NCBI GenBank assembly: GCA_965222605.1
Contig: OZ244960.1
Span: forward strand, 704,001 to 768,000
From: Candidatus Latescibacterota bacterium
GTDB lineage: Bacteria > Latescibacterota > UBA2968
DNA: 64,000 bases
Direction of reading: 5' to 3'
Part shown: one piece after another, positions 8,218 to 11,304 of the stretch
How positions within the stretch are numbered: the first letter of the stretch is position 1
Layout: the number at the start of each line of letters is the position of its first letter
Position numbers and translations under genes: made by a program
Notes under the pieces: generated by a model
Seen by the model: only the letters and a program-made list of their open reading frames with translations
Told to the model about the DNA's origin: nothing
Databases searched by the model: none

Positions 8218-11200
8218 TTAATCGTCTATCGGCAACCCCACAAATAACCGGCTATACTCATCCGTCAACGGATCGCGCTCGCCCTTTTGCGCTGCGCGGG
8301 CAAATACCACACCCGGCGTTTCCGACCTGCGTGCCCGCGCCAAAACGCCATACCCACCGGGCGCACTCTGCGTCTCCAGATCGCCCTGAATCGCTATCAT
8401 CTCTGCCAGCGCATTGGCCAAACCCCAGCGCGCACCAATCGCCCGCGCAAAAAGCTCCTCTGGCGTCAGCCCCTCCCTAAAACCGTGCTTCAGAGGCGTA
8501 AACTCACCCTGATCATTTCGCGTCACGCCCTGAGGAGCCACATACAGCCTGACTTGCTGCCAATTGGCACGCGCACCACATTCCACCAGAAGCGCGGGAA
8601 TCCCGAGTTCATCATCGTCATATCCGCGAAATCGAGCCAACACAGCCGACACCTCATCGGGATAATCGCGCCAGACATCTGGATCATCGCCCTCTGGCGG
8701 ATCGGGACAATCAAGCGACAAACCGATAAAAGCACTCATCGATGCCCCTGTCTTGCGCGCGACATCAAAACCCCGATCCCACAATCGCGTAGCCAGATCC
8801 AATGCAGCCTTCGCACCATCGCGCGCCATCGCATCCGCCATCCAGCCCATCACCTGATACTTATCGACAAACAACCCCTTTCGCTCAACCTCATCGCCGA
8901 CAATCGACGCAATCTCCTGCAACCCCTCATCCGTCATACTCATATACGCCAGGCCAAACAGCGCGTCGTGCATCGGGTGTACCTTCTCCCGTGCAATCAG
9001 CCCCGGATCCCGATTCAGATGCGCCACTGCCGACAGATGCGCCTCAGCCGACCGCTGGCCTACTTCAGTCACCGGCACAAAAATCGCCACCTGATCGCCA
9101 TCAAAATCCAAATTCATCATCTTGCAAATCGCCACACACACGCGAATTGCATCACCTTCCACGCGCACCGGACGACACGCCACAAAAGCCATTGGCGAAA
9201 ACGCGGGATTGCGAAGCACAACAGTCCATAACCCAGCCATAGCCGCATCCAGAGCTTCCTCCGCTTTTCTCGACCGCCTATCCACTTCTTCAGCCCCCAC
9301 CTCTCGCGCAGCAAACGGCCCAAACAATGTCCATGCCATTTCCTCGGGCACACCGACCTGATCGTATCGCAATTCGGGCGCAGGCGCAGCCACCGAACGC
9401 CCGCTGAACAACGCATGCGCCTGAAATTGCAAACGCGACAACTCGCAAAATGCGCGAACCCGCTCAGATAGCGTTTCAACCGCGCGATCCACCAATATAT
9501 CTGGCGCGCCATTGGCAATCATCTCACTCAAGCGGTCATTGGCCTCCCGCAATGCGCTGGGCACATCTCTCCCGCTCACATGTGTCAACGAATGCCCCGG
9601 CAGCCACGGATGCGGAACCGAGCGCGCAAGCGCGACATCCCCATCGCGTTTCAACGAAAACTCTACGCCGCGTTCATCCAGCGCAACTGCCACTCCACCT
9701 TTTGACAAATGCCCAATTAGATCATCAAACTGAGGGGACGGCGCAGTGGGGACAACAGATCCTGCAACGACGCGGTCAGATAGGGTATCAGCATCGTCTC
9801 GATCCACCGCGCACGTATTGAACAAATCGCCAATCACCCCAAAAGCACCCACTTCTCGCAACGCCAAAAACTCTGTCTCACCCAACCCTTGATCGCGTTG
9901 ATCCGGCTTCACACCCATGTGAATTTTATCTGCGGCCAGATGCAACGTGCGCCCCCAATACACCCACCCCACAGTGGTGCGACGCGGCAGCGTTTCCCCA
10001 TTTAGCGTCAGCGTCTCCATGCCATCTTCTGCCAGCCCATTAGCACTCAAACGAGTGCGTATCTCATCGTCTTTCGGCGCACTGAGCACGGGAACAATAA
10101 CCGGCTCTCCCTCGGCTTTTGCAATGCGCCCGGCCACAGCTTCACGCACCTGCCCAATATTCAACCGCGACGGCAAACCACACACACTCACAATCAGTTC
10201 CACAGGCGTGCCATCCGACAATTTGGGCATCTCTTCATCTTTCACAATGCGCGACACCACACCCTTAAAACCGTGTCGATTGCTCAGTTTATCGCCCGGC
10301 GCAACGCGATTGGGCAACATCATCCGGTTCGCAGCGGACTCACTAATCACAAGCGCGTCTTCGTGCGCATCCCCATTCCACGCCATAAACGCGGTCAGCA
10401 AATTGTACCCCGTCCAAAAATGCGGATCGCGCGGTTCACACCCCGTTTGCACCAACGCGGGTTCCGACTCCAGCGCTTTGCCGTCATATTGCGCGTGATA
10501 CATATGCCACACGCCCTGCTCATCGCGCTGCATATCGGGTCCCGGAGCACCAATCCACTGTCGCATCATATTCACACCCATCAAAACGCGATTGGTATCA
10601 TTGTGTTCCAAAAACGGAACCACCGAAGCACCTATGCCCAGCCGCTTTTTAGGGGCATCGTCTTCAATCACCAGTTTGCCATCGCGAATAGTCGCCCCCT
10701 GAGCCACCTCTAAAATCCGCGCGAGATTCGGTCCCTCAGGCGTGCAATAAGGACACACGCGCCCATCGTGTGACGGATGATAGTAATTTTCTATCCCCTC
10801 ATCGGCCTCACCAATAATTGGGATCAACGTCACCCGCCGCAAATGAACGTGCATATCCTGCCAATTGGTCGCCTGCAAATACTGAGAGGTCGGTTCTTCC
10901 GTAAAAAACGCATAAATCCAATCTCCCAACGGCATCCATGTTTCAACTGCTTCTCCCAGCAGTTCTGGCATATTTTCCAACCGCTCGGCAATATAATCGC
11001 GCACTTGCTCGCCCACACACCGAATTTCAGCGCACGCCAAATCCACCTCAGTCGGCGCGGGAACTACCGTTCGAAAAAAGCCATCCACTTTAAACCGCCC
11101 CCATTCATCGGGCTGAGGGATATTTTTGTACACAACCTCTTGTCCGCCCTGAACCGCGAGATGCAATTCACAGGTGTACTCATCCACCGACATCACCCGA

Positions 11201-11304
11201 TAACCCGCCAGCGACACTCTATCCGCCAACAATTCGGGCAACCCCTTTTGAACAAATACATCCCACGAAATTTTATGCCACGGTGCCTTCACCGAAAGAC
11301 TCAT
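8218..11304 (-). CDS. miniature fused RNA polymerase beta-beta' (RpoB-RpoC)-like protein
   Basis: RpoB motifs [76 protein letters not shown]; RpoC motifs [26 protein letters not shown]; AGGAGG RBS 6 nt before ATG 11304. Confidence 0.92.

Follow-up and report, generated by a model that had tools for sequence, protein, structure and literature searches.

We describe a compact, single-chain β-β′ RNA polymerase and its dedicated sigma factor, encoded in a 64,000-nucleotide stretch of the genome of Candidatus Latescibacterota bacterium (assembly GCA_965222605.1, contig OZ244960.1, positions 704,001 to 768,000 of the forward strand; hereafter, the window). The polymerase gene lies on the minus strand at 8218..11304, and upstream of it on the same strand are the gene for a sigma factor of the extracytoplasmic function (ECF) type (13243..13848) and an ECF-type promoter-like motif (13871..13896). 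We judge it somewhat probable that an active, pruned single-chain polymerase and this sigma factor form a self-contained transcription module that drives its own expression. To our knowledge, bacteria are widely held to have one RNA polymerase core, and the exceptions we know of are full-size subunit paralogs or phage and plasmid enzymes. An earlier note on this DNA, made from the sequence alone, had described the polymerase; it missed both the sigma gene and the promoter, which are new here.

The open frame of the polymerase spans 8218..11307 and comprises 1029 codons counted from a TTG. The true start is likely the ATG at 11304, which is preceded by AGGAGG and a 6-nt spacer and corresponds to the ATG at which close orthologs begin, giving a protein of 1028 aa with a TAA stop at 8218-8220, the coordinates and length that the earlier note had assigned. 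Residue numbers used here are those of the 1029-residue translation (P0001); in the real protein each is one lower. A hidden Markov model (HMM) scan finds, in order within the one chain, the Pfam families RNA_pol_Rpb2_3 (residues 142-200, E 4e-5), RNA_pol_Rpb2_6 (E 1e-39), and RNA_pol_Rpb1_2 (E 3e-14). The motifs that the note had listed are all correct in P0001, including the metal-binding NLDFDGD at residues 732-738 (window 9094-9114), and the passage from RpoB to RpoC is in frame, with the junction at residues ~538-585 (window ~9553-9700). The NCBIfam models for bacterial rpoB (TIGR02013) and rpoC (TIGR02386) give the polymerase 171.4 and 104.7 bits, below their respective cut-offs of 801.15 and 963.5, and the rpoC2 bridge-helix region also matches (27.6 bits). 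Bacterial models outscore archaeal ones for both subunits (171 versus 116 bits for rpoB and 105 versus 38 bits for rpoC) in a library of prokaryotic models, eukaryotic ones lying outside the comparison; a descent from bacterial rpoBC, as previously proposed, agrees with this result.

The catalytic residues are retained and are invariant in all 22 sequences of a conservation alignment in which identity falls to 44%. In the β′ barrel these are D734, F735, D736, G737, D738, and Q739, so that the DFDGD carrying the DxDxD triad never varies, and in the β barrel they are G338, D339, K340, R344, H345, G346, K348, and G349 (GDK..RHG.KG). Also invariant are E316 and D317; E191, G192, and P193; N246, M247, R249, and Q250; and R381. 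Judged by the DxDxD triad, two basic residues, and the bridge helix, the protein would belong to the two-barrel (double-psi β-barrel) superfamily.

The enzyme is accessory rather than housekeeping, as had been supposed, since the genome, a single 6.34-Mb contig, also encodes separate full-size β (rpoB; 1829 bits, 1269-aa frame) and β′ (rpoC; 1368-aa frame) at a distance of ~420 kb. Assembly chimerism does not account for the fusion, because the same architecture occurs in all 20 other genomes of the genus that we searched, and the gene is present in complete single-contig genomes. An AlphaFold model of the polymerase has a mean predicted local distance difference test score (pLDDT) of 88 and a predicted template modeling score (pTM) of 0.86. 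Its best structural matches are bacterial and plastid β and β′ chains (best E 1e-22; 1030 matches at E ≤ 0.001), and the expected fold thus holds in the model. One match in the Protein Data Bank aligns residues 331-404 to E. coli β 1056-1129. None of the structural matches is a solved single chain covering the whole model, the best query TM-score being 0.43.

We mapped the regions kept and lost by aligning a family profile HMM to E. coli β and β′ and tested individual blocks by shuffle-controlled pairwise alignment (300 shuffles). Counterparts were found for β 494-576, 653-702, 786-822, 1055-1143, and 1177-1342, and for β′ 267-514 (minus a 25-residue stretch just past the clamp helices), 719-790, and, weakly, 590-640. 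On this comparison, the polymerase retains both barrels, the bridge helix, and the sigma-docking clamp helices, whereas the flap, lobe/protrusion region, zinc finger, rudder region, trigger loop, and jaw are all gone. This accords with the earlier description of an enzyme cut to ~40% of normal size with its catalytic residues intact.

The chain opens with a family-specific N-terminal domain (residues ~2-127, 10927..11304; this and the following segments are all on the minus strand) that stands in for β 1-493 and has W10, H11, S14, L23, P24, L26, and L27 invariant in the 22 sequences. Within it, residues 56-82 align weakly with E. coli β 119-147, conserved region B (HMM domain E 0.025), and are a possible remnant of that region; the alignment is in the expected place, and since 15 of 300 shuffles reach its score, which is not significant, we treat the identity as a suggestion only. 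The counterpart of β 494-576, with the SQYLQ..HLRR and TPEGPN blocks, follows at 10699..10944 (HMM domain E 3.7e-16; Pfam Rpb2_3), and that of β 653-702, with PFLEHND..NMMRQ and the invariant N246, M247, R249, and Q250, at 10552..10656 (HMM domain E 6.8e-14). In the β-type catalytic barrel (10063..10443; invariant E316, D317, K340, K348, and R381), β 786-822 (HED) is joined almost directly to β 1055-1143. The adjoining profile positions 280-316 and 321-409 map to these two segments, and the whole flap of ~230 residues is therefore gone, β 823-1054 having no counterpart in the polymerase. The β portion ends with the counterpart of the C-terminal region 1177-1342 (9664..10062), which reaches the last β residue (HMM domain E 2.3e-19). 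Just after its DKIH block (near residues 465-480), P0029 and the proteins of genomes G007, G008, G010, G017, and G018 have an insertion of ~10-25 residues, which in P0029 duplicates the DKIHMG motif; the β C-terminal region appears to have a variable insertion site here.

The fusion junction (residues ~549-585, 9553..9663) contains VPHPW, with H566, P567, and W568 invariant, and has no zinc-finger cysteine pattern. The first ~90 residues of β′, zinc finger included, are gone. The junction matches β′ 76-131 weakly (HMM E 0.016) and not significantly in the pairwise shuffle test, so its identity with the β′ N terminus is likewise a suggestion only. The clamp helices (residues ~586-625, 9433..9552) that the earlier note had named are borne out by pairwise alignment: residues 590-625 align to E. 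coli β′ 276-311 with z = 5.3, a score reached by 0 of 300 shuffles, and the model has two long helices here, at 584-598 and 603-620. Next comes the β′-type catalytic barrel with FSGRSV and NLDFDGD (8908..9420), which includes the invariant D734, D736, and D738 and matches β′ 267-514 (HMM E 5.2e-39; Pfam Rpb1_2); we take the 25-residue gap just past the clamp helices to be the position of the rudder. The GARAN block and bridge helix (FREGL..GARWGL; 8353..8595) match β′ 719-790. Residues 937-965 align to β′ 757-785 with z = 7.1 (0 of 300 shuffles), and the model has a 32-residue helix at 949-980. Directly after the bridge helix, the chain closes with a short conserved block (8221..8352) in which P998, G999, F1002, A1003, A1005, A1006, E1010, L1014, R1020, F1022, V1023, and G1024 are invariant. 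Because just ~49 residues follow the bridge helix, the enzyme has no trigger loop, insertion, or jaw. The best local alignment of this block, at β′ 1331-1354, is where region H would be expected and is not significant (98 of 300 shuffles), so that identity, too, is a suggestion only.

The polymerase is one of a large family of proteins of ~1000-1060 aa, all of them unnamed or labeled hypothetical. Full-length homologs with the same deletion pattern are common: 114 of the 120 best database matches are 1002-1068 aa long and cover at least 99% of the query, with identity down to 43%, and every source-given name among the 120 is "hypothetical protein." Among 1.84 billion cluster representatives, 333 proteins match at E ≤ 1e-30; the best 150 of these include ~80 full-length members with identity down to 35%, and giant true fusions (~1950-2520 aa) appear among these 150 only from ~1e-60. 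In contigs sampled as one genome per species, we confirmed 194 stretches, the best 80 of which come from Latescibacterota, Poribacteria, Chloroflexota (several classes), Planctomycetota, Armatimonadota, Gemmatimonadota, and Hydrogenedentota. The family thus spans at least seven phyla. Selection on it is purifying, with ratios of nonsynonymous to synonymous substitution rates (dN/dS) of 0.12-0.23 in nine ortholog pairs, a tenth pair being saturated. All 20 other genomes searched in the window's genus carry the polymerase, as do 1 of 16 in the sister family and 54 of 151 sampled across the phylum (14 of 46 genera), a patchy distribution. On the family tree, phylum labels cluster, with eight changes against a minimum of six and a mean of 31.7 after shuffling, and Latescibacterota occupies three places.

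That patchiness within the phylum would fit a polymerase of a prophage, plasmid, or other mobile element that, like YonO of the Bacillus prophage SPβ, transcribes the element's own genes. The single-chain two-barrel polymerases known so far do come from phages, plasmids, and mobile elements (PMC2919709, PMC7824862, PMC5467207). We nevertheless find this explanation very improbable. The window has no phage genes in the neighborhood of the polymerase, nor is the gene in a ribosomal-protein operon, just as the earlier note had stated. Matches in phage and plasmid records are to ordinary rpoBC, none of 33 and none of 68, respectively, covering at least 80% of the polymerase. In viral contigs, we confirmed 236 stretches as distant relatives; the best 80 of these (L122-L201) are 20-35% identical, and most of the 80 span 3.4-4.3 kb, as expected of full-size phage β/β′ sets. 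PADLOC gives no match to the polymerase, and its PHROG matches are generic β/β′ families only. On these comparisons, we reject a phage, plasmid, or defense origin. The clustering of phylum labels, the presence of the polymerase throughout the genus, and flanking genes that are conserved inside clades and differ between them also speak against a mobile element. The second core is chromosomal, vertically inherited, ~40% of normal size, and recognizably bacterial.

The sigma gene encodes 201 aa from a TTG start at 13848, which follows GGAGGA and is also set from orthologs. The protein has regions 2 and 4 only (Pfam Sigma70_r2, E 3.6e-18; r4_2, E 3.5e-15) and scores 123.2 bits with TIGR02937, above the cut-off of 42.9. 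We compared 81 loci (the best 80 of the 194 stretches plus the window) by clustering their open reading frames (ORFs) and rescoring all six frames with profiles. A cognate sigma gene of ~200 aa lies upstream of the polymerase on the same strand in 76 of the 81, scoring at least 200 bits, whereas other sigma-like ORFs in the same loci score 25-191 bits on the sigma family profile; that profile was built from these same sigmas, and the scores are therefore partly circular. The remaining five loci are two in which the sigma gene is split over two frames, one in which it is cut by the contig end, and two on contigs that start at the polymerase gene. Counting the split and cut copies, a sigma gene is upstream in 79 of 79 loci that have upstream DNA. 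In the window's genome, the cognate sigma scores 300 bits against at most 115 for 12 other sigma-like genes. Sigma stop and polymerase start codons overlap in 27 of the 76 loci, and the gap is at most 30 nt in 40. We found no fused sigma-polymerase: ORFs of 1135-1184 aa in four loci are start-codon over-extensions, with the sigma in another frame, and the best 150 of the 333 representatives include no fused form of ~1230 aa.

The two genes also come and go together. Among 41 relatives, the same 24 genomes hold both sigma and polymerase and 17 hold neither; the one genome of the 41 with two polymerase paralogs has two sigma paralogs, each adjoining one polymerase copy. Across the 151-genome phylum sample, 50 genomes hold both, 96 neither, 4 the polymerase only (one of these at a contig edge), and 1 the sigma only (at a contig edge). 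Sigma and polymerase distances are tightly correlated (Mantel r = 0.96, 0 of 999 permutations), and the two trees have 30 of 73 splits in common, compared with a mean of 0.2 after label shuffling. The sigma factor, too, is under purifying selection (dN/dS 0.07-0.17 in 10 pairs) and is 44-64% identical across phyla, the inter-domain linker included, a part that is unusually conserved.

Several individual cassettes are worth recording. An 8.4-Mb relative carries two complete ones (G021:C1:1427408-1431186 and 3367761-3371734) with polymerases 50% and 41% identical to the window's, which points to an old duplication or a second acquisition. Two cassettes, both from polymerase-only genomes, are decayed; with G154, described below, and the contig-edge case, they make up the four such genomes. 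In G147 (L204, G147:C1:3420500-3424600), a deletion derivative with a single 373-aa frame joins the first ~40 sigma residues to the last ~300 polymerase residues, and in G148 (L203, G148:C1:720600-722900), the sigma and polymerase residues 1-93 are missing; both retain the promoter motif described below, with one mismatch.

A co-transcribed anti-sigma factor is typical of ECF sigmas, although not universal, and its gene usually lies directly downstream of the sigma gene. The neighborhood clustering of the 81 loci reveals no third gene, such as an anti-sigma gene, conserved across phyla; the polymerase gene holds that downstream place and is often translationally coupled to the sigma gene. This position, together with the retained clamp helices, raises the idea that the polymerase is a noncatalytic decoy or regulator that binds sigma, an anti-sigma-like sink. 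We consider such a role most unlikely, however, because a sink would need neither the catalytic residues of both barrels, which are invariant across phyla, nor the conserved bridge helix and nucleotide-binding blocks, and ~1000 residues of the protein are under purifying selection.

The third element of the cassette is the promoter-like motif TGAAC-N14-CGGTGTC upstream of the sigma gene (13871..13896, minus strand). The family form, TGAAC-N15-GGTGTC (consensus TGAACyT...GCGGTGTC), precedes the sigma gene in all 76 loci with a callable start, exactly in 60, with one mismatch in 14 and with two in 2, and usually ends ~21 nt before the start codon. The window's copy is the only exact match in the 6.34-Mb genome (a reversed-pattern control also gave one match), and a weight matrix scores it at 36.2; the runner-up, at 18.7, falls in the control range. 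Terminator-like hairpins lie on either side, both on the minus strand: one with a 12-bp stem and a T run (13901..13928) abuts the promoter and ends the upstream unit, and one with a 16-bp stem and a T run (8160..8196), 22 nt past the polymerase stop, ends the cassette. The unit is therefore insulated at both ends.

Searches for further targets in five other complete genomes gave 3-10 exact motif matches per genome against 0-2 for controls. Outside cassettes, there are 24 extra exact matches, in four of the five genomes; of the 20 inspected, most fall inside open frames, and their scores are -5 to 22, compared with a cognate median of 35. As these extra sites are mostly within ORFs and low scoring, they allow no claim of a wider regulon. 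Two identical promoter-like sites (L116 and L117, G044:C1:243268-244493 and 1475125-1476350; score 21.8) lie inside a repeated opposite-strand frame of more than 408 aa and are probably a repeated element, not a target.

From these features we infer catalytic activity, contact between sigma and polymerase, and autoregulation, which would fit together as follows. TGAAC-N14-CGGTGTC would drive one transcript encoding sigma and polymerase and, in the window's strain, an ABC exporter as well. The two proteins would be made together, in many relatives via translational coupling. In ordinary RNA polymerase, sigma region 2 docks on the clamp helices, and region 2 of this sigma would do likewise on those of the compact enzyme. 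The sigma and mini-polymerase would then initiate at the sigma-specified promoter and so feed back on their own operon, the host polymerase with the same sigma probably giving the first round of expression. The sigma factor is most likely the polymerase's own initiation factor, given that the linkage is strict and ancient, that the genes are co-duplicated and translationally coupled, that there is no anti-sigma gene, and that the clamp helices persist in a heavily pruned enzyme.

We predicted the complex of sigma with polymerase residues 279-1029. The score of 0.58, against 0.00 for the best of three controls, is graded as weak support; the partner has a pLDDT of 65, and runs agree in at least 25% of contacts. 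Of 80 solved complexes, 58 pass the mark applied, as do 2 of 110 mismatched pairs. Scores of 0.60 or less account for just 7 of the 80 and for both of the mismatches that pass; a score in this range is wrong more often than not for any pair that was not already expected to interact. Because sigma and β′ are a textbook pair, the pass may also reflect likeness to solved holoenzymes.

Several observations weigh against a sigma-loaded mini-polymerase. By profile, the sigma is a thoroughly ordinary ECF sigma, and its promoter has what we take to be the ordinary ECF layout, both of which fit use by the host polymerase. The complex prediction is weak and leaves out the N-terminal 278 residues of the polymerase. 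The β flap is the normal dock of sigma region 4 (PMC7824862). Its deletion takes away the usual means of placing region 4 on the conserved TGAAC element; the conserved N-terminal helix at residues 10-28 is a candidate for an alternative dock. The weight-matrix scan found no second promoter copy above the control level in the window's genome, and since no strong second copy was found, the only identified target is the cassette itself. There is one clear exception to the pairing: G154 (L202, G154:C1:3659300-3661400), a single-contig genome, has a full-length polymerase without a cognate sigma (best 86 bits) and without the promoter motif in 1.8 kb upstream. In G015, a member of the window's genus (L034), the polymerase is intact, but the sigma match (7643-8095) is in two pieces that leave profile positions 30-73 uncovered, reflecting either a damaged gene or an assembly error. 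Finally, expression data come from RNA-library contigs of relatives, with DNA carry-over possible. These contigs, from runs of three studies, cover sigma and polymerase at 90-95% likeness, and they therefore come from relatives; they carry no information on start site, strand, or true transcription, and stretches that they leave uncovered have no meaning.

Much of this is what would be expected if the sigma worked only with the host RNA polymerase, as a switch for the mini-polymerase gene, and the mini-polymerase then acted without sigma in some specialized role, such as priming or work on RNA templates or on single-stranded or damaged DNA. This alternative accounts for the canonical sigma and promoter, the absence of the flap that holds region 4, and the retention of a full-length polymerase in G154; a sole clear promoter preceding the cassette is likewise expected if the polymerase gene is the sigma's one target. 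Moreover, YonO, also a stripped single chain, can be processive (PMC5467207). We nonetheless regard this alternative, the main one, as rather unlikely. A mere regulator would be expected to be swapped, yet the pairing holds at 79 of 79 loci in seven phyla, with co-duplication and co-divergence. The stop/start overlap at 27 of the 76 loci suggests that the two proteins are made in matched amounts, the clamp helices have survived the loss of most other accessory modules, and the predicted complex, with its caveats, gives weak support rather than none. The holoenzyme and the host-polymerase switch may both be partly true, with the host enzyme bootstrapping expression of a module that then sustains itself.

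Among known enzymes, YonO is close in plan. It is a stripped single-chain enzyme and a processive DNA-dependent RNA polymerase (PMC5467207). YonO and the compact polymerase, each ~100 kDa, both carry two barrels on a single chain that lacks the trigger loop, flap, lid, rudder, and lobe. YonO is phage-borne, has few residues in common with cellular enzymes, and has no known promoter factor, whereas the compact family has long significant matches to bacterial β and β′ (171 and 105 bits), is chromosomal and not found on phages, and comes with a dedicated sigma and promoter; the two are set apart here by description. Orf6 of the yeast cytoplasmic linear plasmids (pGKL2/virus-like elements), a protein of ~980 aa with about half of each subunit deleted (PMC2919709), is also similar in that it joins shortened versions of the second-largest and then the largest subunit, the order seen here, in ~1000 aa. 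Orf6, however, is eukaryotic and poxvirus-like in origin, acts together with a small second subunit as well as a capping enzyme and a helicase (PMC6211774), and retains the flap insert (PMC7824862), whereas the compact polymerase is flapless, bacterial in type, paired with sigma, and on a bacterial chromosome. The compact polymerase resembles both YonO and Orf6 as a pruned single-chain two-barrel enzyme and is a member of neither family.

The remaining comparisons are with enzymes of recognizably bacterial descent. The full-length fusions PRK14844 and PRK09603, which we take to be the Helicobacter and Wolbachia types, have β followed by β′ in one frame but are housekeeping enzymes at full size (model lengths 2839 and 2890); the compact polymerase coexists with separate full-size rpoB and rpoC and scores 171.6 and 161.3 bits on these models, below the cut-offs of 4632 and 5372. 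Like the compact polymerase, the non-virion RNA polymerases of the jumbo phages phiKZ and AR9 derive from bacterial β/β′ by divergence and loss, having no α or ω homologs, and depend on a dedicated specificity subunit (PMC7598289, PMC5449584, PMC7824862). In the phage enzymes, which comprise four or five polypeptides, the flap is present and no sigma is recognizable (PMC7824862); the compact family has one chain and a bona fide sigma, encoded on bacterial chromosomes.

An ordinary ECF sigma with its host core has the same two-domain sigma and a TGAAC/CGT-like two-block promoter with fixed spacing, and autoregulation from a promoter before the sigma gene is the usual ECF pattern. The compact-family sigma differs in having no conserved anti-sigma gene, with a miniature polymerase core in its place, and in occurring only where that core occurs, apart from the contig-edge, sigma-only genome mentioned above. 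Full-text literature searches gave us no description of a compact bacterial β-β′ fusion or of an ECF sigma paired with one, although the supplementary context tables of the ECF re-classification (PMC7826278) might record such a neighbor; the main text of that paper contains no mention of Rpb, RNA_pol, polymerase subunit, Chloroflexi, or Latescibacteria (PMC7826278). The earlier note, likewise, had known of no characterized family of this type. The sigma, the single-chain polymerase, and the promoter together look like an undescribed two-gene transcription module.

In the window, an MsbA-like ABC exporter gene of 597 aa (11347..13140, minus strand; Pfam ABC_membrane and ABC_tran) lies between sigma and polymerase. 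Inserts of more than 1000 bp at this position occur in 11 of the 76 loci (the window and ten related ones), all in the window's clade; the exporter insert is not in other genomes of the window's genus, and in RNA-library contigs of relatives, 11320 is joined to 13268 with no exporter between. The exporter looks like clade-specific cargo captured by the cassette, under its promoter and outside the conserved pair. Upstream of the cassette (13952-15926, minus strand) are two genes, one for a 345-aa protein bearing a C4 zinc finger of the DksA/TraR type at its N terminus and one for a 315-aa protein without a family match. They adjoin the cassette only in the Latescibacterota clade (19 and 17 of the 81 loci), and their unit ends at the terminator that abuts the promoter; a DksA-like finger next to a polymerase gene may or may not be meaningful. 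Downstream (4976-8070, minus strand), in the window's clade only, are genes for a BlaI-type repressor and then a 902-aa BlaR1-like M56 peptidase fused to five TonB C-terminal repeats, with their own sigma70-like promoter at 8106-8134. Farther upstream (16988-18755, minus strand), an MjaI-type restriction endonuclease gene adjoins an N6/N4 DNA methylase gene, likely a type II restriction-modification pair.

Should the sigma serve only as a switch for the gene, attention turns to the role of a stripped polymerase in Latescibacterota, Poribacteria, Chloroflexota, Planctomycetota, and other phyla. It may also be, although we hold this with somewhat less than even confidence, that at least seven phyla possess a two-protein machine with a private sigma and a private promoter, able to initiate in a sigma-dependent manner although it lacks the flap, lid, rudder, zinc finger, and trigger loop. 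If the sigma and core do work together, they would define the minimal structure for sigma-dependent initiation, with the flap, lid, rudder, and trigger loop dispensable, and the enzyme would be the smallest known sigma-dependent polymerase. The compact sigma, core, and promoter would then also constitute a natural orthogonal expression system, and the family would represent a natural experiment in the pruning of cellular polymerases toward YonO-like simplicity.

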